Virus record (IMG/VR): IMGVR_UViG_3300045988_094612 | Location: 1 to 12,602 of that record | Reading direction: 5' to 3' (one strand) | Source of the DNA: a virus | Length of the DNA stretch: 12,602 bases | Part shown: positions 1 through 12,602 of the stretch, piece after piece | Position numbering within the stretch: position 1 is the first letter of the stretch | Layout of the letters: each line of letters opens with the position of its first letter | Notes under the pieces: generated by a model | What the model was told of the DNA's origin: nothing | Database searches by the model: none | Seen by the model: the letters and a program-made list of their open reading frames with translations, nothing else | Translations under genes and position numbers: made by a program

Positions 1-37
1 AAATATCCAAACCCCCCCCCGCTGCGAGATGGGAATT
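1..37. repeat. Left inverted terminal repeat: AAATATCCAAA-C9-GCTGCGAGATGGGAATT
   Basis: Seen directly. The reverse complement of positions 12565..12602 is identical except for a C9 versus C10 homopolymer. The sequence is a GC island in an AT-rich genome and starts with the 5'-AAA reiteration typical of protein-primed sliding-back origins. Confidence 0.9.
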
Positions 38-109: not shown

Positions 110-180
110 CATAATACTAAATTACTACTAATATAGTACTAGTTAGCAATTACTAACTACTAAATTACTACTAATTTAAA
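110..180. repeat. Cluster of TACTA/ACTA iterated motifs in the non-coding left-end region; the 16-mer ACTAAATTACTACTAAT occurs twice
   Basis: Seen directly. TTACTACTAAT occurs at about 121..131 and 165..175, and TACTAG/TTACTAACTACTAA lie between them. No ORF in the region. The position between the left origin and the first promoter suggests protein-binding iterons. Confidence 0.5.
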
Positions 181-263
181 ACTTTTCTAAAAATATTAAA
201 ATTATTGTTGACAATTCTAAAAATATTATATATAATAAGCGTGTCAATAAAGAAAGCGAGGAA
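173..263 (+). repeat. Copy A of a perfect 91-bp direct repeat comprising promoter, leader and Shine-Dalgarno site
   Basis: Positions 173..263 are identical to 545..635 (offset 372 bp) as read from the sequence. Confidence 0.9.
208..236 (+). promoter_or_regulatory. Consensus sigma-A/sigma-70 promoter: TTGACA (208..213), 17-nt spacer, TATAAT (231..236)
   Basis: Exact match to the -35 and -10 consensus hexamers with the optimal 17-nt spacer. It is followed by the SD GAGGA (258..262) and the ATG at 269. Confidence 0.8.
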
Positions 264-268
264 AATTT

Positions 269-520
269 ATGACACAAAATCAACTAAAAACATTACAAGA
301 TTGTATGAAAGATTTAGAAAATGTAACACAAGAAGAACAAGGAATTTATTACAGCGATTTATTAAGCGTTTTAGTTACAAACGTTGAAAAGATTAGTTAT
401 ATTAAATTTACTAAAAAAGTTGAACAAGCTATAAGAGTATATATAATCAGTATTATAGCTAATAATGATATTGATTATCGTATTAAAAATGAATTGCTTG
501 TTACATTTTTAAAATTCTAA
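269..520 (+). CDS. Early small protein (83 aa), function unknown
   Basis: ORF with an SD (GAGGA) 6 nt upstream, driven by consensus promoter A. No recognisable motif. Confidence 0.7.
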   Translation: MTQNQLKTLQDCMKDLENVTQEEQGIYYSDLLSVLVTNVEKISYIKFTKKVEQAIRVYIISIIANNDIDYRIKNELLVTFLKF

Positions 521-544
521 ATAAAAATAGGTTAGAGGATTACA

Positions 545-635
545 AATTTAAAACTTTTCTAAAAATATTAAAATTATTGTTGACAATTCTAAAAATATTA
601 TATATAATAAGCGTGTCAATAAAGAAAGCGAGGAA
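545..635 (+). repeat. Copy B of the 91-bp promoter/SD direct repeat
   Basis: Identical to 173..263. Confidence 0.9.
580..608 (+). promoter_or_regulatory. Second consensus sigma-A promoter: TTGACA (580..585), 17-nt spacer, TATAAT (603..608)
   Basis: Lies within repeat copy B. It is followed by GAGGA (630..634) and the ATG at 642. Confidence 0.8.
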
Positions 636-641
636 TATTTT

Positions 642-710
642 ATGATAAGTGAAATTGATTTTAAGAAATTGCAAAAAGTAAAGCTAAATATGTACGTAGG
701 TATATTATGA
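642..710 (+). CDS. 22-codon leader ORF (MISEIDFKKLQKVKLNMYVGIL). Its TGA stop overlaps the ATG of the next gene (ATGA)
   Basis: It starts at the position equivalent to the ATG of ORF 269 relative to the duplicated SD. Its stop at 708..710 overlaps the ATG at 707..709. It may be a coupling or regulatory uORF. Confidence 0.35.
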   Translation: MISEIDFKKLQKVKLNMYVGIL

Positions 711-1039
711 CAATAAAATGCGCTGATTTTTGGTTAATTCGTGACAAATTTGATAAATCACCTAAGTTGTATTTAGACGTCGTGGGCGATTATTATTTAG
801 AACACGTCACAACCGCATATTACTTTGAAAACGATATCGCATATTATTACGACCGCCATATGGTTAAATGGCATTTAGTAGATTTAAGACTGCATCGCAT
901 TATATTAACGGCTAAAAATAAAGAAGCCGTTTTACAACTAGCGCACGCAACGCGCACAAGAATAAAAGAATATAGAAAACAAAATGAATACATATACATG
1001 TGGCAAGAAAGTCAAGAAATATTAAGGGGGTTACAATAG
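707..1039 (+). CDS. Early protein (110 aa), unknown function, locally GC-richer
   Basis: ORF with only a weak SD of its own (AGGT). The ATGA overlap with the leader ORF suggests translational coupling. Confidence 0.6.
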   Translation: MTIKCADFWLIRDKFDKSPKLYLDVVGDYYLEHVTTAYYFENDIAYYYDRHMVKWHLVDLRLHRIILTAKNKEAVLQLAHATRTRIKEYRKQNEYIYMWQESQEILRGLQ

Positions 1040-1040
1040 C

Positions 1041-1292
1041 ATGAAATATAATACATTAATTAAAGACATTAAAAAGCGTAAGTTATGGGATGTAATAATT
1101 TACATTGAAAACGCGGACAATCACGCAAGTATATTTTATTATTTGTATGACTTCGAAATTTATATTAAAGCACGTTATCATAATCAAGAAAGATTTGTAG
1201 ATTTTACACTAACTTATATTAGAAAAAGAAAAGAGCTTCATATTTGGGGACAAACTTCAAATTATAAAGAATGGAAGGACGTACAAATATGA
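1041..1292 (+). CDS. Early protein (83 aa), unknown function
   Basis: ORF preceded by AGGGGG. Its TGA stop overlaps the next ATG. Confidence 0.6.
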   Translation: MKYNTLIKDIKKRKLWDVIIYIENADNHASIFYYLYDFEIYIKARYHNQERFVDFTLTYIRKRKELHIWGQTSNYKEWKDVQI

Positions 1293-1519
1293 CCGATAAA
1301 GAAATAAAAGACTTAAAAGAAGATTTAGAATATTATCAACTTACATTTAGTATGGTTAGATATAAATTAAGTAATTATAAAGAAATAATTTTAGAACTAA
1401 ACGAACTTTTAAACGATTATTTAGATCAAAATGAAATTTTTAAAAATTTAAGCACAGATAACGCATATAATTTAAAAGAGATACTAGATGATCTAGATAT
1501 AGACTTTTACAATTATTAA
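1289..1519 (+). CDS. Small acidic protein (76 aa), paralogue 1 of a tandem pair
   Basis: The preferred start is ATG 1289 (SD GGAAGGA at 1274..1280, 8-nt spacing, ATGA overlap with the upstream stop) rather than the track start 1271. There are about 18 acidic versus 8 basic residues. It is a paralogue of 1555..1788. Confidence 0.6.
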   Translation: MTDKEIKDLKEDLEYYQLTFSMVRYKLSNYKEIILELNELLNDYLDQNEIFKNLSTDNAYNLKEILDDLDIDFYNY

Positions 1520-1554
1520 ATCGCTTCTCATTTAATAAGAAAGAGGTAAAACAA

Positions 1555-1788
1555 ATGTTAGAAAAAGAACTAAACGATATAAAAGAAAAATTAGAATTTT
1601 TAGAATTAATGAACGACTCAAAAGATTATAAAATAAAAAAATACGAATTTTTAATACTACAATTAAACGAACTTTTAATTAGTACCACTGATATGACGCA
1701 AATAGATATATTTAATGCTTTAGTTGGTGATAGTCCAAACACATTAAACAAAATATTAGATACGCTAGACTTAAATTTAAACTATTAA
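1555..1788 (+). CDS. Small acidic protein (77 aa), paralogue 2 of the tandem pair
   Basis: SD AAGAGG upstream. It shares a (K)E(I/L)xDxKExLEy N-terminus, a central ILxLNELL block and an ILDxLDxxxxNY C-terminus with 1289..1519. A 14-nt stretch AAACGAACTTTTAA and the 3' flank GCTTCTCATT are conserved at the DNA level. Confidence 0.65.
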   Translation: MLEKELNDIKEKLEFLELMNDSKDYKIKKYEFLILQLNELLISTTDMTQIDIFNALVGDSPNTLNKILDTLDLNLNY

Positions 1789-1845
1789 AATAGCTTCTCA
1801 TTCAAATTAACATATATTAAGAGAAAGAAAAGGAGGTTAATTATT

Positions 1846-2301
1846 ATGAGATTAAAACTTACTATGAAAATCAATACAAAGGAGGTGACCTATGAAGATG
1901 AAGGCAAAAAGAAAACTTTTAAAAGCTATTACACCTATTTAAAAGTGCCATTTGAAGCACCTGAGGGTAAAGATGTATCATTTAATTTACACTTTAGGCA
2001 AGATTGTGAGAACGCGTACGGTCGTGATTTAAACGGGGTTGTTACCGCTATTGTGGATGTACCTTGGTACGTTGTAGTTAAAGAGGGTAAAAATGAAGAT
2101 TACACTAAACAAGCTAAAATGATATTAAATGAAATATACGGCAAAAAAAGATTTGAAAACATTTGGCTTCATAAAATCTTAGATTATAAACCATTTGAAG
2201 AGAAAGAAGAAAACGACGACGATTTATTAGAATTTGACACGACAAAAAAGACTAAAGACGTTGAAAACATTAAAACAACCGACGACGATTTACCATTTTA
2301 A
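1846..2301 (+). CDS. Putative single-stranded DNA-binding protein or SSB mimic (151 aa) with a duplicated SSB C-terminal acidic tip (NDDDLLEF and TDDDLPF-COOH)
   Basis: Strong SD AAAGGAGG. The C-terminus ...TTDDDLPF matches the conserved Firmicute SSB C-terminal tip (E. coli SSB ends DDDIPF). An internal second copy is encoded by the direct repeat GACGACGATTTA at 2215 and 2281. The N-terminal part is beta-rich and could be an OB fold. An SSB is expected in a protein-primed replication module. Confidence 0.45.
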   Translation: MRLKLTMKINTKEVTYEDEGKKKTFKSYYTYLKVPFEAPEGKDVSFNLHFRQDCENAYGRDLNGVVTAIVDVPWYVVVKEGKNEDYTKQAKMILNEIYGKKRFENIWLHKILDYKPFEEKEENDDDLLEFDTTKKTKDVENIKTTDDDLPF

Positions 2302-2314
2302 GGAGTTAATAAAA

Positions 2315-2569
2315 ATGACAAAAGATATTAATATAACCGATTTTTTCACTTATTTTGTAGTCAATTACAAGCAAGACACTAAATATATGGTTTATTTACT
2401 AGTATATGGAGGTGGCAAACTATATATTAATAACGATTTGACATTTACATATGAACAACCAAATAAAATGAGTTTAATCGGTGTGCTTACCTTATTTGAA
2501 GAAATAATTCAATGCGATTGTGAGAATTTATTAGATATTCTTTACATAAAGGAGGTAATTAAAGACTAA
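2315..2569 (+). CDS. Early protein (84 aa), unknown function
   Basis: The preferred start is ATG 2315 (SD AAGGAG 2300..2305, 9-nt spacing) rather than 2234, which lies inside the previous gene. The stop overlaps the next ATG (TAATG). Confidence 0.55.
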   Translation: MTKDINITDFFTYFVVNYKQDTKYMVYLLVYGGGKLYINNDLTFTYEQPNKMSLIGVLTLFEEIIQCDCENLLDILYIKEVIKD

Positions 2570-3330
2570 TGCCTAAGAGACTTAAATTAAATTTATCTTA
2601 TAACGATTTAAATAAAATGTCTCTTACTGATTTAAAAAGCTATGCCATAAAGCTTAACAACGTTGCAAACTTGAGAGTAAGAAAGCTAAGAGAATTTGCT
2701 CCTTACTCTCCCGCTTTGTCTTCATACGAACGTAGCGAGTTAGGTACTTTTAGAATTGGTAAGGACGCGGATATTAATAGCTTACGCAAAAGCGTAGCTA
2801 GGGCAAAACACTTTCTTGAAATGGAGACGAGTACAGTTAGAGGTTCTATAAATGTTACATTACGCACTTTAAAACGCTTCGGTATAGAACCTCCTGATTT
2901 TAGCAAGAAAGAAAAAAAACCAAGAGGACGACCAAAAGGTTCAAAAAATAAAATTAAAACAAACGTACCTAAAGAGAAAAAACCAAGAGGACGACCAAAA
3001 GGTTCAAAAAATAAAAACGCATATAGTCAATATATTGAGACCGTAAAATGGTTATATTCAAAGAGAGAATTATTAAAAGAGTTCTTCGACTTGTACAATA
3101 GATATAAAGATTTATACCATGGTGGCGAACTACCTAGTGATACTATTAAAGTAGGTATGGATGTATTTTTGGACCTTAAAAATGATTTATTACAAAAAGT
3201 TGGCGACGAATGGGTAAATAGAGAAACGGGAGAAATAGTAGACCGAGACCAAATATTCTTTGATATTATGAATCAAAAAATAGAGAGAATGCACGACTAT
3301 ATTTATAGCTCATACAATCAATATAACTAA
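2569..3330 (+). CDS. Putative terminal protein (253 aa) carrying two tandem AT-hook motifs (KKPRGRPKGSKNK x2)
   Basis: It sits immediately upstream of, and is coupled to, the protein-primed DNA polymerase, as in phi29 gene 3 / gene 2. Its size is similar to phi29 TP (266 aa). By eye it resembles phi29 TP around YHGGELPSDTI (phi29 YAGGKPQGTI). RGRP is the AT-hook core. There is a Ser/Tyr-rich C-terminus. Confidence 0.5.
   Translation: MPKRLKLNLSYNDLNKMSLTDLKSYAIKLNNVANLRVRKLREFAPYSPALSSYERSELGTFRIGKDADINSLRKSVARAKHFLEMETSTVRGSINVTLRTLKRFGIEPPDFSKKEKKPRGRPKGSKNKIKTNVPKEKKPRGRPKGSKNKNAYSQYIETVKWLYSKRELLKEFFDLYNRYKDLYHGGELPSDTIKVGMDVFLDLKNDLLQKVGDEWVNRETGEIVDRDQIFFDIMNQKIERMHDYIYSSYNQYN
2913..3017 (+). 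repeat. Roughly 40-bp direct repeat, two copies 63 bp apart, encoding the two AT-hook units
   Basis: AAAAAACCAAGAGGACGACCAAAAGGTTCAAAAAATAAAA occurs at about 2915..2954 and 2977..3016. Confidence 0.85.
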
Positions 3331-3332
3331 TT

Positions 3333-5420
3333 ATGAAACAATACAATACGATTAAGGAGTGTTTAGCAAATGTAAAAAACTTTAAAACATACAAAAAAAG
3401 ACATAGAGATAAATACTTTAATAATCGTATTTGCTTTGACATTGAAGTATCTAGTTTCTATGTTGAAGGTATTGAAAAAGAACTAACTAAAAGAGCATGT
3501 TGTTACGCTTATATTTTTGGTATCGACGGCAATTATAAAATCGGTAGAAGCTTAGAAGAATTTATAAAAGACGTTGATTATCTTGAGTATGTTATGCATA
3601 AAAAAGACCCTGAAGCACATATAGTTATATGGATCCACAACTTAGCATATGAGTTTCAGTTTATTAGAAAGTATTTTGAGATACAGGAAATTTTAGCAAA
3701 CGACGAGAGAAAGATTATATACGCAGTTACTAAAAATAATATCGAGTTTAGATGTAGCTATATGTTGAGTGGATACTCTTTACGTAAAGTAGGAGAAAAT
3801 CTAAGACACCATACCGCTAAAAAAATGGTAGGAGATTTAGACTATTCCTTATTAAGAGGATCTACAACTCCACTAACTGAAAAAGAAATCGGATATATCA
3901 GGGAAGACTACGAGGTATTAGACAACTACATTGAAGAAGAACTCGAAACTTATCAATATATCTCACGATTACCATTAACTAAAACGGGTAAAGTAAGAAA
4001 GTTTTGTCGTAAAGTTTGCAATGAAAAAGGCGACTATAGAAAAAGATTTATTAAAAATCTTGTTATTAACGACGCTCAAGAATATATGCTTATGCGACGT
4101 GCTTTCATGGGAGGCTTTACACATGCTAACTCATTGGCTGTTAATAACTTAATTAGAGATGTAACATCTATCGACTTTACTAGCTCTTATCCCGCCGTTA
4201 TGGTGAGTGAGATGTTCCCTATGAGTCGAGGTCAAATAATAGAGATTAAATCTTTAGACCAAATAAAAGAATTATCTAAAAGAAACTGTCTTATATTTGA
4301 TATAGAGTTTTGGGATTTAGAAAGTACTTTTATTTATGAGTCTTATTTGTCAAGTTCACATGGTATCACTGAGGGAGCTACGACGATAAACAATGGTAGA
4401 ATAGTTATGACTAAATATTTAAAAACTACAATAACTAACATAGATTTAGATATAATAGAGAAAGTTTATAAATGGACTAAATGTAAAATAGGTTTGTGCT
4501 ACGTTTATAAAAAATGGTACCTCCCTACTACATTTGTAAAAAGTATCTTAATGTTATATAAAGACAAAACAACTTTAAAAGGTATTGACGACAAGATAGC
4601 CGAATACATGAATTCCAAAGAAATGTTAAACTCTTGTTATGGTATGACTGTTACTGATATTATTAAACCTGAGGTAGAATATGACGACGAGGAGGGGTGG
4701 CATACCGAAGAAATGACACTCGATAAACGAGGAGAATTAGTAGAAAAGTATAACAATCAGCGCTCAAGGTTTTTATTCTATCCATGGGGTGTTTTTATCA
4801 CAGCATATGCTAGGCGGAACCTGTGGTCAGGTATTTTAGAATTTGGAGAAGATTACTGCTATAGTGATACCGACTCGATCAAAGGAATTAATTATAAAAA
4901 ACATAAGAATTATGTTGATAAATACAACGATATATGTTATCATAAATTAGAGGTAGCAATGAGTTATCATAAACTTGATATATCATTGTGCGCTCCGACA
5001 ACTATAAAAGGAGAAAAGAAAATCATAGGCGTTTGGGATTATGACGGTCATTATGATATGTTCAAAACTTTAGGAGCTAAACGCTATATGGTATATAACA
5101 ACAAAGGATTATCATTAACTATATCAGGAGTTAATAAAACTAAAGCAGTACCTTATTTACTCAAAAAGTATAAAAACGATATACAACAAATATTTGATAG
5201 TTTTAGTAATGGATTTGAGGTACCCTCACCACATGCGGGCAAGCAAATTCTTACATATATTGACTATGAAACGAGCGGAGAGTTTATGGACTATTTAGGC
5301 AATAGACAAACGTATCATGAGTTAAGCTCAGTACATATGGAAGAGGGAAGCTATACATTGACAATGAGTGACGAGTACTTAAAATTCTTAGCGGAAGGAG
5401 TGAAGATAGATTATGTATAA
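3333..5420 (+). CDS. Protein-primed family-B DNA polymerase (695 aa)
   Basis: Contains Exo I FDIEV, Exo II HNLAYE (phi29 HNLKFD), Exo III YIRED, motif A DFTSSYPA (DxxSLYPS), motif B KEMLNSCYG (Kx3NSxYG), YPWGVFITAYAR (phi29 TPMGVFITAWAR), motif C YCYSDTDS (YxDTDS) and KRYMVY (KxY). The N-terminus YKIGRSLEEFI matches phi29 YKIGNSLDEFM. There is no SD; the start is 2 nt after the TP stop, suggesting coupling. Confidence 0.95.
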   Translation: MKQYNTIKECLANVKNFKTYKKRHRDKYFNNRICFDIEVSSFYVEGIEKELTKRACCYAYIFGIDGNYKIGRSLEEFIKDVDYLEYVMHKKDPEAHIVIWIHNLAYEFQFIRKYFEIQEILANDERKIIYAVTKNNIEFRCSYMLSGYSLRKVGENLRHHTAKKMVGDLDYSLLRGSTTPLTEKEIGYIREDYEVLDNYIEEELETYQYISRLPLTKTGKVRKFCRKVCNEKGDYRKRFIKNLVINDAQEYMLMRRAFMGGFTHANSLAVNNLIRDVTSIDFTSSYPAVMVSEMFPMSRGQIIEIKSLDQIKELSKRNCLIFDIEFWDLESTFIYESYLSSSHGITEGATTINNGRIVMTKYLKTTITNIDLDIIEKVYKWTKCKIGLCYVYKKWYLPTTFVKSILMLYKDKTTLKGIDDKIAEYMNSKEMLNSCYGMTVTDIIKPEVEYDDEEGWHTEEMTLDKRGELVEKYNNQRSRFLFYPWGVFITAYARRNLWSGILEFGEDYCYSDTDSIKGINYKKHKNYVDKYNDICYHKLEVAMSYHKLDISLCAPTTIKGEKKIIGVWDYDGHYDMFKTLGAKRYMVYNNKGLSLTISGVNKTKAVPYLLKKYKNDIQQIFDSFSNGFEVPSPHAGKQILTYIDYETSGEFMDYLGNRQTYHELSSVHMEEGSYTLTMSDEYLKFLAEGVKIDYV

Positions 5421-5495: not shown

Positions 5496-6599
5496 ATGGC
5501 TAAAGAAAAAGAAGAACATTATAGATTAGATAAAATACTAGCACATAAAGCACAATATTATATGATTATCGGTGAGCGTTCTAATGGCAAGACTTATGCT
5601 ATCTTAGAACACTGCTTAAAGGAATATGTTAAAAGCGGATACAAGAAAGAATTTTGTATCTTGAGACGTTGGCAAGACGACTTTAAACCTAAAAACTCTA
5701 CGCAAATGTTCGCGGGTCATATTCAAAATGGTGTAATAACTAGACTCACAAAGGGAGAATTTAACTCGGTATCTTATTTAGGTGGTCGTTGGTATCTAGC
5801 ATTTGTCGACGAGCACGGAGCTACAACAAAGAAAATGCAAACACCTTTTTGCTATGGTTTTGCTCTTAATGACCAAGAACACATTAAATCAATCTCATTC
5901 CCTAATATTAAAAATATTTTCTTTGACGAGTTCTTATCAAGTAATTACTATCTACCTGATGAATTTGTTATCTTCATGAACGTATTATCAACTATTATAC
6001 GTTTACGTAACGACGTTACAATATTCATGGCAGGTAACACGATCAATCCTTATGCACCTTACTTTAATGAAATGGGATTAAAACATGTTAAGAACATGAA
6101 AAAAGGTGAGATTGAAGTATATACTTACGGTGATAGTGGGCTTAAAGTAGCAGTTGAGTTCTCGGACTATTACGGTAAAAAGAAGAGTAACATCTACTTT
6201 GCTTTTGACAATCCTAAACTAACTATGATTACAGGCGTTGGGGGTACTTGGGAAATAAACATCTACCCTCACTTGCCTTGTAAATATAAGCCAAAAGAAA
6301 TATTATTTACTTATTTTATTTTATTCGACAACGAGATATTCCAATGCGAAATCGTTTCAACAAACGATATGACGTTCACATACATACACCGTAAAACGGG
6401 AGAGTTGAAAGACAAGGGGGACTTAATATTCGACCTTGTACCAAATGGGAAGCCTAACTATGTTACTAACATCTATAGTTCTGGTAGTCCTGTAGTAAAT
6501 ATGATTTTATCCTTTTTCAAACTGAGTAAGGTTTTTTATCAAGACAATACGGTAGGTGAGTCAATAAGAAACTATTTACAAGTTTGTATTAGAGGCTAA
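5496..6599 (+). CDS. DNA packaging (encapsidation) ATPase, phi29 gp16-like (367 aa)
   Basis: Walker A GERSNGKTY and Walker B IFFDEF. The block IKNIFFDEFLSSNYYLPDEF...AGNTINPYAPYFNEMGL resembles phi29 gp16 TIVFDEFIREKDNSNYIPNE...LSNAVSVVNPYFLFF. Confidence 0.9.
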   Translation: MAKEKEEHYRLDKILAHKAQYYMIIGERSNGKTYAILEHCLKEYVKSGYKKEFCILRRWQDDFKPKNSTQMFAGHIQNGVITRLTKGEFNSVSYLGGRWYLAFVDEHGATTKKMQTPFCYGFALNDQEHIKSISFPNIKNIFFDEFLSSNYYLPDEFVIFMNVLSTIIRLRNDVTIFMAGNTINPYAPYFNEMGLKHVKNMKKGEIEVYTYGDSGLKVAVEFSDYYGKKKSNIYFAFDNPKLTMITGVGGTWEINIYPHLPCKYKPKEILFTYFILFDNEIFQCEIVSTNDMTFTYIHRKTGELKDKGDLIFDLVPNGKPNYVTNIYSSGSPVVNMILSFFKLSKVFYQDNTVGESIRNYLQVCIRG

Positions 6600-6658: not shown

Positions 6659-6898
6659 TTGATAGTCTTAACAGGAACTGTGGGAATACAACAAATCGAG
6701 TCTATTATAGGAATTATTAGTGTATCTTTATCAGTTCTATGGATTTTGTTCAAGTTGGCCTTAAAAGTGTACCAAGCTCTTAAGAATAAAGACTATAGCA
6801 ACTTAGAGAACAACATTAATAAGACTAAAGAAGAACTCGACAAGATTAAAGAAGACTTAGAAAGCAGGAGAGAAAATGGCGGACAAGATACCGAATAG
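6659..6898 (+). CDS. Small membrane protein (79 aa): an N-terminal transmembrane helix plus a charged coiled-coil tail. Candidate holin.
   Basis: The hydrophobic segment IIGIISVSLSVLWILFKLAL is followed by a K/E-rich C-terminus. The ORF has no in-frame ATG, so the start is presumably TTG 6659 (no SD) or GTG 6680. Its stop overlaps the connector gene start. Confidence 0.4.
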   Translation: MIVLTGTVGIQQIESIIGIISVSLSVLWILFKLALKVYQALKNKDYSNLENNINKTKEELDKIKEDLESRRENGGQDTE

Positions 6899-7889
6899 GC
6901 AAGATTGGAGTTATGAAAAATTATTAGGTTGTAATAGAAACCCATTGAAAGACAAAGAGCGCTTAGTATGTCAACACAAAAGTTACATGTTATCACGTCT
7001 TAATCAGTTGTTTGAATGGGACGGCTTACCAGAGACAATACCACAAAAAGAGTTTGAATGGATATTATTAATGCAGGGCAAAGCAACTATTGCCGACGTA
7101 CCTAACAAAGGCTTATATGCTTTTCAATCCAACTTAGGAGGTATCTTGAACCCTTACTACTTACCTACTCAGTCAATTGTAGTCAATCCTTACTTACCAT
7201 TTAACAAGGTACTTGAGGTTGATAAAGATTGTGTTGTAATTCGTAACACTTCAACATTTACTCCTATTAATGATATGTTAGATTTATACGCTAACATGCT
7301 AGCCGAGATTGATATATCTTTAAGAATTGCTACCGTTAATAGTCGTATTAGTTCTCTTATATCCGTAGGAGACGAAGCGACCAAAGATAGTGCTACGAAG
7401 TTCTTAGAAGATATAGAAAAAGGCAAGCTAGGAGTTATAGCTACTAACAAATTCATGGAGAGTCTTAAAGGTGGTCTTAATGCAATTCAATATGCAGGTA
7501 CTATTAGTAACATTCAGGACCTTATAGAATTAAGACAGTACATCTTAGCTACGTGGTTTAACCAACTTGGCTTAAACGCTAACTATAATATGAAACGTGA
7601 AGCTATCAACGAGAGCGAGGCTGATTTAAACGAAGAGGCTTTAATGCCATTGATAGACGATATGTTGCAATGTAGACAAGAGGGAGCCGAGAAAGTTAAT
7701 GCTATGTTTGGTACTAATCTTAGTGTTAAACTCAACTCTTCATGGAAGCTCCAAAGAAAAGAAATAGAAACATCTATGGAACTTGCCGAGAAAGAATTAA
7801 ATACCGAAGAAAACGAAGAAACACAAGAAGAGGGAGAAAGTAAGGAAGAACCAACCGAAGACAAGGATAAAGAAAATGATAACGATTAA
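6876..7889 (+). CDS. Head-tail connector / portal protein, phi29 gp10-like (337 aa) with an acidic C-terminal tail
   Basis: LSRLNQLFEWDGLPETIP matches phi29 connector LAYQLFEWENLPPTI. The size is similar (phi29 309 aa). SD AGGAGA upstream. Confidence 0.8.
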   Translation: MADKIPNRQDWSYEKLLGCNRNPLKDKERLVCQHKSYMLSRLNQLFEWDGLPETIPQKEFEWILLMQGKATIADVPNKGLYAFQSNLGGILNPYYLPTQSIVVNPYLPFNKVLEVDKDCVVIRNTSTFTPINDMLDLYANMLAEIDISLRIATVNSRISSLISVGDEATKDSATKFLEDIEKGKLGVIATNKFMESLKGGLNAIQYAGTISNIQDLIELRQYILATWFNQLGLNANYNMKREAINESEADLNEEALMPLIDDMLQCRQEGAEKVNAMFGTNLSVKLNSSWKLQRKEIETSMELAEKELNTEENEETQEEGESKEEPTEDKDKENDND

Positions 7890-9265: not shown

Positions 9266-10411
9266 ATGACAGTAAAACAAATTTATGAATTAGTAAACGC
9301 AAGTACAAAACAAGTATTAGGAGAAACTGCTATCCTTACTGAAGATTTATCCAATGTCATTGATATTGGTACTGAAATCTTTAACGCTAACGCAGTAGAT
9401 AACTATGTCAAAACTTTAGTTGATAGAATTGGTAAAGTTATCTTTGTTAATAGACCCTATAGTGGTTCTATCCCTTCAGTCTTAATGGACTCATGGGAGT
9501 ACGGTTCAGTCACTGAAAAAATTCAAATGGATTTACCTGAAGCCGAAGTCAACGAGTCATGGGAATTACAAGATAGAGCTACTTATGACCAAAACTACTT
9601 CTATCAACCAAAAATCTCTGTTAAGTTCTTTAATAAGATGGTAACTTTTGAAGTTCCAATGTCAATCACTGAAAGACAAGTTCAAGAAAGCTTTACCTCA
9701 GCTCAAGCTTTAGGAAGCTTTGTTGGCATGATTTGGACAATGATTGAAAACTCCATGACCGTTAAACTTGATAGTTTAATCTTAATGACTATCAATAATA
9801 TGATTAGCTTAACTGACTTAGCTAACGGTGGCGGAGAAGCTCAACACGTCCATTTATTAACTGAATATAAAGCTCTCAATCCTGACTTTACAAAAACAGG
9901 TGAAGCTGCAATGACTGATTTAGGTTTCTTAAAATATGCCGCTTTTAGAATTAAATTAGTAGCAGGTCGAATGACTCAATATTCGGATGTCTTTAACGCT
10001 GAAAAGAAATCAAGACACACACCTAAGGATTTAATGCACATTGTATTATTATCCGACTTTAAAAATGCAGCGGATGTATATTTACAATCTGATACATTCC
10101 ACAATGAACTATCAGCTTTACCAAATAGTGAAACAGTTCAATATTGGCAAGGTTCAGGTAATGGTAGTGACGCATTTACATTCGCTAATACATCCAAGAT
10201 TAATATCAAAAACTCCAATGGCAATACATATACTAAGTCTAATATCATTGGCGTTATCTTTGATAGAGACGCATTAGGTGTTACTAAGAAAAATACACGT
10301 ATTCGCTCACACGTTGTTGATAAAGCTGAGTTCTACAACTATTGGTATAAAGCTGATGTAGGCTACTTCAACGACTTAAGCGAAAACTTCGTTTGCTTCT
10401 TAATTGATTAG
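9266..10411 (+). CDS. Major capsid protein, phi29 gp8-like (381 aa)
   Basis: YVKTLVDRIGKVIFVNR matches phi29 gp8 ITSLVDRIGLVVIRQ (recalled). The size and position fit, and the gene is followed by a strong terminator. SD GGAGGA upstream (13-nt spacing). Confidence 0.7.
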   Translation: MTVKQIYELVNASTKQVLGETAILTEDLSNVIDIGTEIFNANAVDNYVKTLVDRIGKVIFVNRPYSGSIPSVLMDSWEYGSVTEKIQMDLPEAEVNESWELQDRATYDQNYFYQPKISVKFFNKMVTFEVPMSITERQVQESFTSAQALGSFVGMIWTMIENSMTVKLDSLILMTINNMISLTDLANGGGEAQHVHLLTEYKALNPDFTKTGEAAMTDLGFLKYAAFRIKLVAGRMTQYSDVFNAEKKSRHTPKDLMHIVLLSDFKNAADVYLQSDTFHNELSALPNSETVQYWQGSGNGSDAFTFANTSKINIKNSNGNTYTKSNIIGVIFDRDALGVTKKNTRIRSHVVDKAEFYNYWYKADVGYFNDLSENFVCFLID

Positions 10412-10419
10412 TTGAAATT

Positions 10420-10450
10420 AGGGGGTATAGAAATATACCTCCTTTTCTTT
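10420..10450 (+). terminator. Rho-independent terminator: 10-bp stem AGGGGGTATA/TATACCTCCT with a GAAA tetraloop and a TTTCTTT tail
   Basis: Seen directly. The stem is 10420..10429 pairing with 10434..10443 (one G-U pair), the loop is GAAA, and a T-rich run follows. It lies just after the capsid gene stop. Confidence 0.7.
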
Positions 10451-12564: not shown

Positions 12565-12602
12565 AAATTCCCATCTCGCAGCGGGGGGGGGTTTGGATAT
12601 TT
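12565..12602. repeat. Right inverted terminal repeat: AATTCCCATCTCGCAGC-G10-TTTGGATATTT
   Basis: Reverse complement of 1..37, with one extra base in the homopolymer. Confidence 0.9.

Follow-up and report, generated by a model that had tools for sequence, protein, structure and literature searches.

Why does a small phage genome begin with two identical copies of a predicted early promoter, placed on either side of its first early gene? The question is raised by the left end of the window, by which we mean the whole stretch of DNA that was analysed, a complete linear phage genome of 12.6 kb (12,602 nt) with 31.5% G+C. The original prediction, which was made from the letters alone, described a module of promoter, leader and Shine-Dalgarno (SD) sequence that is duplicated around the gene referred to here as ORF1, and proposed that promoter and ORF1 together form a 372-bp unit, inserted or duplicated by recombination between promoter copies and liable to be lost or amplified by the same route. 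Our objectives were to place the genome among its relatives, to describe the repeat and the genes that adjoin it, and to assess the age and stability of the arrangement by comparison with related left ends. We consider it likely that the locus consists of two early-expression cassettes of about 100 bp, in tandem and 372 bp apart around ORF1, which carry putative early promoters, are ancestral rather than recent, exchange sequence with each other, and act as joints in the shuffling of small early genes.

The genome and its kind

The gene set of the window is of phi29 type. Pfam matches identify a DNA polymerase B of the protein-primed type at 3333-5420 (PF03175, 1.9e-11), a phi29 gp16-type packaging ATPase at 5496-6599 (PF05894, 4.3e-12), a gp10-type connector at 6876-7889 (PF05352, 2.3e-17) and a phi29-type major capsid protein at 9266-10411 (PF25622, 2.3e-49), and the PHROG search of the window's proteins returned a match to phrog_1907 (5.6e-62). 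All substantial open reading frames lie on the + strand, and the genome is bounded by inverted terminal repeats (ITRs; Table 1), a type of terminus that the relatives share. The nearest named relatives are Astrithrvirus phages, with capsid identities of 52% to Acinetobacter phage Phanie and 49% to Salmonella phage astrithr. Neither megablast with the whole window nor blastn with positions 100-720 found a match among 50,697 phage records, or any genus-level nucleotide similarity to Salmonella phage astrithr. Taken together, the ITRs, the phi29-type genes, the capsid identities and the lack of a nucleotide match in these records indicate that the window is a complete linear phi29-like genome from a clade that is related to Astrithrvirus and appears to be absent from the annotated phage records searched.

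Like the window, astrithr and Phanie are linear genomes of about 11-12 kb with ITRs and the same order of polymerase B, ATPase, connector and capsid genes; they differ in a G+C content of 37-40%, against 31.5% in the window, in the lack of nucleotide similarity, and in the leftward genes at their right end, which the window lacks. No comparable direct repeat or duplicated promoter cassette was found in Phanie, astrithr or L011, which are the more distant relatives. The search for a host gave no relative of the 610-aa last gene in GTDB genomes, and the capsid protein had relatives only at 44-51% identity, on short contigs mis-binned in gut MAGs. An Rfam search at the gathering threshold found nothing, and there are no recognisable recombination genes in the 12.6-kb genome.

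Several features elsewhere in the genome deserve mention. The putative terminal protein is ORF 2569-3330 (253 aa), which has no family match and is assigned only from its place upstream of the polymerase gene. A 46-nt direct repeat within it (2908-3016, 98% identity, 63-nt spacing) encodes KKPRGRPKGSKNK twice, and the doubled peptide looks like a pair of AT-hook (PRGRP) motifs of the kind that would bind the minor groove of DNA. The 37-nt ITR holds a run of nine C (AAATATCCAAACCCCCCCCCGC...). Similar runs lie near the termini of close relatives, of Phanie and of the relatives L011 and L012 (48% GC), which may point to a conserved role as an origin or in recognition by the terminal protein. The ITR of L011 is 205 nt long and filled by iterons that recur every 8 nt. 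At its 3' end the polymerase gene contains an 11/12 promoter-like site, TTGACA-16-TAAAAT, at 5358-5385; the packaging ATPase gene begins 110 nt further on. The site is kept in eight of nine relatives and could be a middle or late promoter, although its conservation may simply reflect coding sequence. The sole convincing hairpin resembling an intrinsic terminator is found at 10420-10443 (10 pairs and a T-run), directly after the capsid gene, and the opposite strand has an overlapping hairpin there. The F0 family is represented by two tandem paralogues (1271-1519 and 1555-1788, repeats at 266-nt spacing); complete relatives have one copy, and two are seen otherwise only in the near-identical fragments L020-L022.

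Sampling of relatives

Related genomes were collected by three routes. A capsid-based scan of IMG/VR yielded eight genomes with 93-98% capsid identity, four of which include the left end (L004, L007, L009 and L010, all from one metagenome). Look-ups through F1, the family of ORF 707, for which only three clusters were found, gave L016, L017 and L030 together with the fragments L018-L022, and look-ups through ORF1 homologues gave L023-L029. The left end is present in 14 genomes and L030 is one more, nearly complete, which makes 15 in all; seven of these were sampled independently of ORF1, most of the added genomes having been obtained through ORF1 homologues, so that the sample is biased towards ORF1-bearing genomes. 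An exact scan of viral contigs with a window-specific 37-mer gave 0 matches, and a scan with a conserved 27-mer returned only the four genomes already known and one duplicate in a metagenome collection. An independent Logan contig from another sample, L021, is 100% identical to window positions 606-2943.

Anatomy of the repeated cassette

As originally described, the repeat is exact over 91 nt. The copies, which lie 372 nt apart, still agree at 98 of 100 positions when the comparison is widened to 100 nt, and the two exceptions are 172/544 and 264/636. In 200 sequences simulated from the window with a Markov-1 model, exact direct repeats did not exceed 17 nt, the longest per sequence being 14.3±1.0 nt, and the second-longest repeat in the real sequence is 40 nt. 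Both copies contain the predicted TTGACA-17-TATAAT promoter, a leader and GAGGA, which stands 6-7 nt before an ATG in each case; the downstream ORFs and the ATGA overlap between the 22-codon mini-ORF and ORF 707 are likewise present as claimed, and the predicted transcripts of the two copies would have the same 5' end. Promoter-like sites are no more numerous in the window (63) than in shuffled sequences (65.9±6.9), for which reason only the 12/12 sites are informative; there are two of these in the genome, one in each copy. For copy A the start of transcription is predicted near 243, which would leave a leader of about 26 nt.

Table 1. Features at the left end of the window, and gene content of the variable block to the left of F1 in the window and its relatives
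Feature	Position	Strand	Description
Left inverted terminal repeat	1..37	.	37 nt, pairs with 12566-12602, 100% complementary
ACTA-rich direct repeats	115..183	+	between ITR and cassette A; TACTAAATTACTACTAAT twice, ending AATTTAAAAC
Cassette copy A	169..268 (exact 173-263)	+	A/T-rich upstream part; -35 208-213; -10 231-236; SD GAGGA 258-262
14-mer TTCTAAAAATATTA, copy A	185..198, 215..228	+	
ORF1, family F5	269..520	+	83 aa, conserved early gene
ORF1 3' flank	521..540	+	AGGTTAGAGGAT; motif follows ORF1 in every context
Cassette copy B	541..640 (exact 545-635)	+	-35 580-585; -10 603-608; SD GAGGA 630-634
14-mer TTCTAAAAATATTA, copy B	557..570, 587..600	+	
Mini-ORF, putative deletion scar	642..710	+	22 codons; 642-685, F14-type 5' end; 686-710, F7-type 3' end
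ORF 707, family F1	707..1039	+	110 aa, first early-core gene; in all relatives
Variable block, window			F5, scar
Variable block, L004			F5
Variable block, L009 and L028			F5 F9 F7
Variable block, L010			F5 F9 F13 F7
Variable block, L007			F5 F9 F16 F13 F7
Variable block, L029			F9 F5 F7
Variable block, L017			F9 F5 F10 F7
Variable block, L023			F9 F5 F11 F10 F14 F7
Variable block, L016			F11 F10 F5 F7
Variable block, L024 and L025			F5 F11 F10 F7
Variable block, L026			F5 F11 F14 F7
Variable block, L027			F5 F17 F18 F7

Two shorter elements recur within the cassette. The 14-mer TTCTAAAAATATTA has exactly four occurrences, all of them inside the cassettes, and with up to two mismatches allowed it is found nine times against an expectation of 1.76±1.47; an ATTGT-N2-ACAAT inverted repeat spans the -35 element. 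To the left, the ACTA-rich repeats are conserved and the anchor ACTACTAATTTAnAACTTTTCTA is present in 14/14 left ends, even before promoters unrelated to that of the window; upstream of the ACTA-rich repeats the relatives are alike, and three alternative promoter types begin downstream of them. The leader is unstructured. RNA folding of positions 500-660 gave -14.7 kcal/mol against -17.3±3.0 in shuffles (z = +0.89), and no terminator or stem-loop of the kind found in the promoter-early stem-loop (PeSL) cassettes of T4-type phages was called between ORF1 and copy B, near 520-640. The first letters of the leader, TGTCAA (243-248), are the reverse complement of the -35 element TTGACA (208-213) and form part of a 10/12 promoter-like site on the minus strand (247-220) that faces back into the cassette; no significant RNA structure arises from this complementarity in the fold.

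ORF1

Homologues of ORF1 fall into 34 clusters at 75-95% identity. Every one of them lies on contigs of this clade, which measure up to 13.8 kb, and no record of the window's exact protein was found in the contig index. A median dN/dS of 0.24 over 90 pairs indicates purifying selection. Neither ORF1 nor the other small early ORFs have a Pfam or PHROG family, and the AlphaFold model of ORF1 is helical and of low confidence (pLDDT 63.7).

In one respect the notion of a promoter-ORF1 cassette stands, since ORF1 is a movable gene that takes first, second or third place in the early block of the relatives. The expectation that the 372-bp unit would be present in some genomes and absent from others did not hold: ORF1 was found in 15/15 genomes, including the seven recovered without using it, and none lacks or amplifies it. 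Recombination of the whole 372-bp unit must therefore be rare or selected against. Recombination between the two copies themselves is evident from the genome-specific variants that they share, as set out below.

Age of the pair and homogenisation of the copies

One explanation of a perfect repeat is that it is young. A recent, genome-specific duplication or insertion of promoter plus ORF1, which is what was first proposed, would account for the 91-nt identity, for the sharp boundaries of the repeat and for the different places of ORF1 in relatives. The comparison of left ends points elsewhere. Five genomes (the window, L004, L007, L009 and L010) have the same two-copy layout with the same boundaries (AATTTAAAAC on the left, ATGA on the right) and an ORF1 homologue between the copies, the copy spacing in the other four assemblies being 372-378 nt, and a layout shared in this way is not a recent insertion. 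The window and L004 each have 2 differences between copies A and B and L009 has 2/58, whereas L007 has 14 and L010 has 19; the 14-19 events in the last two genomes imply that the duplication predates their divergence. The pair therefore appears to be ancestral to the sub-lineage of five genomes, and we regard a recent origin as very unlikely and largely refuted.

If the pair is old, the identity of the window's copies has to be explained in another way. Two haplotypes of the cassette can be told apart, alpha (leader GTTGT…, SD AAGGGAGAAAA and mostly ATTCC in the promoter spacer) and beta (leader AAGCG…, SD AAAGCGAGGAA). L007 and L010 carry an alpha copy A and a beta copy B, L009 has two alpha copies, the window two beta copies, and L004 the same alpha/beta chimera in both; the haplotypes thus group by genome and not by position. 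Between copy A of the window and copy A of L007 differences occur only at 218, 237-241 and 255-261, which are alpha/beta sites, with none from 95 to 217, while the neighbouring ORF1 differs by 5.6%. Genome-specific variants held in common by both copies, together with differences confined to alpha/beta sites, indicate gene conversion or repeated recombination between the copies. We conclude that copies A and B evidently exchange sequence in concerted evolution, and that at least 44 nt of copy A in the window appear to have been replaced by B-type sequence, as a conversion tract rather than a new insertion, which would account for the perfect identity of the two copies.

An error of assembly has to be weighed at this point, in which the assembler collapsed a repeat whose copies really differ, or copied one that is present only once. 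The repeat exceeds typical k-mers, both Logan contigs L020 and L021 break inside it, and several relatives come from one multi-strain metagenome, where a repeat of 100 nt could appear more homogenised than it is through strain-chimeric assembly or bubble-popping. Against this, the same architecture was recovered in five assemblies, namely the window and four others with two copies around the same gene, which shows that the repeat is not an oddity of one contig, and distinct copy sequences were resolved in L007 and L010. L021, which reproduces the window in a different sample, starts exactly 30 nt before the first mismatch between A and B (636); this is the start expected from the Logan graph, which we take to have k=31, if the repeat to the left of 636 is equally perfect in that sample, and it speaks in part against the caveat. 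An artefact is in our judgement extremely improbable.

Gene shuffling to the left of F1

Clustering of the early proteins defines a conserved core that runs rightwards from F1 (F1, F2, F0, F3, F4, sometimes F8, F6 and the polymerase). To the left of F1 the gene order varies in almost every genome (Table 1). The part that varies in content is the stretch downstream of copy B, with 0-4 genes, and not ORF1.

Signals for expression vary along with the genes. Nine genomes have an unrelated leftmost promoter after the same upstream anchor ACTACTAATTTAnAACTTTTCTA; these include a type II promoter, TTGAAA-16-TATAAT with AAGGAGGTCATTATT, and a type III promoter in L025 and L026. The tandem arrangement is consequently not essential, nine relatives having a different, single leftmost promoter. 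From ORF1 onwards L028 and L009 are collinear at 94% over 4,291 nt. ORF1 of L028 follows a type II promoter, and copy B in L028 lacks exactly the 30 nt between the internal 14-mers TTCTAAAAATATTA, a loss that also removed the -35 element. In L017 copy B is truncated at its 5' end. Pieces of leader and SD without a promoter (GTCAATAAAGAAAGyGAGG…ATGAC, or TAAAGAAAGCGAGGAAA) stand before F10, F14 or F5 in other genomes and are confined to the variable block, and in L027 only the last ~40 nt of F9 remain. On this comparison the cassette, its internal 14-mers and the leader/SD piece serve as joints where small accessory early genes have been lost, exchanged and put in a new order.

The same data bear on a further explanation, in which the identity of the copies is selected because the cassette holds operator sites and the two copies are co-regulated, for example in early shut-off. 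Candidate sites would be the 14-mer repeats 30 nt apart and the ATTGT-N2-ACAAT over the -35 element, and candidate regulators ORF1 or the AT-hook-like protein encoded at 2569-3330. Such a role would fit the restriction of the four 14-mers to the cassettes, the presence of a TTCTA-containing pair in the unrelated type II and type III promoters as well, and the conservation of the cassette, which equals that of coding sequence. It sits poorly with the 14-19 differences between A and B that are tolerated in L007 and L010, with the loss of one 14-mer and the -35 element in L028, with the outright replacement of the cassette in nine genomes, and with ORF1 itself, which has a low-confidence model and in which Pfam and PHROG detected no DNA-binding domain. 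Selection for co-regulation is thus rather unlikely to be the reason for the identity, although it is compatible with two ancestral, exchanging cassettes, the reading that we prefer.

The mini-ORF as a deletion scar

The original prediction had copy B drive the 22-codon mini-ORF that precedes ORF 707, and comparison with relatives suggests how this ORF came about. Positions 642-689 agree with the starts of genes beginning MITEI(N/D)F in L007 and L010 at 32/48 nt, where 15.1±3.2 would be expected by chance, and the same mini-ORF in L020 (282-336) matches the start of F14 in L026 at 85%. Positions 686-710 repeat, letter for letter, the final 25 nt of the L009 gene 787-993, a member of F7, including the stop that overlaps the F1 start. 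The mini-ORF accordingly reads as a deletion scar that joins the 5' end of an F14 gene to the 3' end of an F7 gene, and not as a designed leader.

A second deletion can be placed just upstream. In L020 the same mini-ORF is preceded by the cassette leader and an F10 pseudogene, and the window has the arrangement of L020 minus 259 nt between two AAAGCGAGG repeats. L020 thus appears to preserve the undeleted state of the window's B junction, with the joint inside the shared SD at 635/636, and a 259-nt deletion between the AAAGCGAGG repeats explains why the perfect repeat ends at …GCGAGGAA, immediately before a T. The F10 pseudogene itself (L020 39-170) is cut short at 43 of 99 codons by a CAA to TAA change and has lost its 3' end; its presence in a close relative of the window indicates that the accessory block is decaying in this lineage.

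F1 lacks its own SD, and in all relatives but one the stop codon of the preceding ORF overlaps the F1 start (ATGA, 707-710 in the window); in L004, F1 is fused straight to cassette B. The scar has kept an ORF that ends in the ATGA overlap, and translational coupling to F1 has therefore probably been retained; the scar may persist because it keeps ribosomes terminating at ATGA. A programmed -1 frameshift from the mini-ORF into ORF 707 was also considered, since the two frames are related by -1 and CAAAAAG occurs at 672-678. It was rejected because the 0-frame codons are CAA AAA GTA, which offer no X XXY YYZ heptamer, and it is further countered by the relatives, which show the mini-ORF to be a fusion scar, and by L004, which expresses the gene without the mini-ORF.

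Discussion

The arrangement suggests how the left end may operate. Host RNA polymerase would start at both cassettes soon after entry of the DNA, to judge from the promoter consensus, each cassette supplying an A/T-rich upstream stretch, a consensus sigma-70-type promoter that is predicted to be strong, a leader of about 26 nt, a strong SD and ATGA. Since no terminator was called between the copies, only copy A would serve ORF1, and both copies would contribute transcripts of the rest of the early operon. As the related genomes show, the copies do recombine, and parts of the cassette are breakpoints where small early genes are deleted, replaced or moved.

The closest known counterpart is the PeSL cassette of T4-type phages, which joins an A/T-rich region and a sigma-70-like early promoter to a stem-loop, an SD and a start codon (Arbiol et al. 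2010, PMC2839356). Such cassettes are concentrated beside ORFans in the hyperplastic parts of the genome, where they bring about the shuffling of modules (PMC2839356; Comeau et al. 2014, PMC4122927). The window resembles this system in its repeated small cassettes with an A/T-rich upstream region, consensus early promoter, SD and start codon, in the small genes of unknown function alongside, and in a hypervariable region where cassettes bound the indels, replacements and reordering between close relatives. It differs in other respects: the window cassette has no stem-loop or terminator (fold z = +0.89); there are two full copies in the first 640 nt, with leader/SD fragments in relatives, as against about 50 cassettes in T4-type phages; the genome is a 12.6-kb one of the protein-primed podophage type without recognisable recombination genes, and not that of a T4-like myovirus; and homogenisation of the copies is directly visible in the window's clade. 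By analogy the cassette would work like PeSL, but it is not a member of the PeSL family. Genomes with F11 (157 aa) provide a related observation (L016 638-750, L023 1291-1404, L024 936-1049): the last part of the gene contains an 11/12 promoter-like site, after which a hairpin, AAGGTTAA-CGC-TTAACCTT, spans the stop codon and is followed by the promoter-less leader piece GCGTCAATAAAGAAAGTGAGG. This combination of promoter-like site, hairpin and leader is closer to PeSL.

Other comparisons concern the parts separately. The early promoters A1-A3 of T7 are tandem strong promoters for host RNA polymerase that drive the early operon from near the genome end. Those of phi29, A2b and A2c, are likewise tandem, strong, read by the host enzyme and near the genome end, and serve the early operon (review PMC11476376). 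Neither set consists of long exact repeats or has a gene between identical copies, whereas the window has both, and the phi29 promoters are under the control of p4 and p6, while the Pfam and PHROG matches of the window include neither a p4 nor a p6 homologue. Lambdoid phages have short conserved 'boundary' sequences at gene borders, and in T7 deletions occur between short direct repeats. Here too, short shared sequences at gene starts, namely the AAAGCGAGG SD piece and the 14-mers, act as crossover points where modules are exchanged and deleted; the difference is that the shared sequence in the window is the expression signal itself and reaches 100 nt, a length sufficient for ordinary homologous recombination.

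A more ambitious proposal is that the leader/SD and the 14-mers form a dedicated exchange site at which small early genes are captured, swapped and dropped, for instance if the protein-primed polymerase switches templates in the course of strand-displacement replication. We think this quite unlikely; if true, it would amount to an integron-like renewal of host-takeover or anti-defence genes in minimal phages that lack recombinases of their own. As a side possibility, ORF1, the sole gene never lost, might act on the cassette.

For ancestral cassettes that exchange sequence and serve as joints, the account that we favour, the implications are more modest. With promoter function predicted from the sequence, the locus would represent phage genome plasticity of a familiar kind and no new class of mechanism. 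It nonetheless offers a compact natural case of expression signals that double as recombination substrates, documented in 15 genomes, where gene conversion between promoter copies, a 30-nt deletion between internal repeats that removes the -35 element, promoter replacement, SD-to-SD deletion and permutation of gene order all fall within about 1.5 kb. Two lessons may apply to the reading of phage genomes: a perfect repeat need not be young, and mini-ORFs after strong promoters can be deletion scars that are kept for translational coupling.
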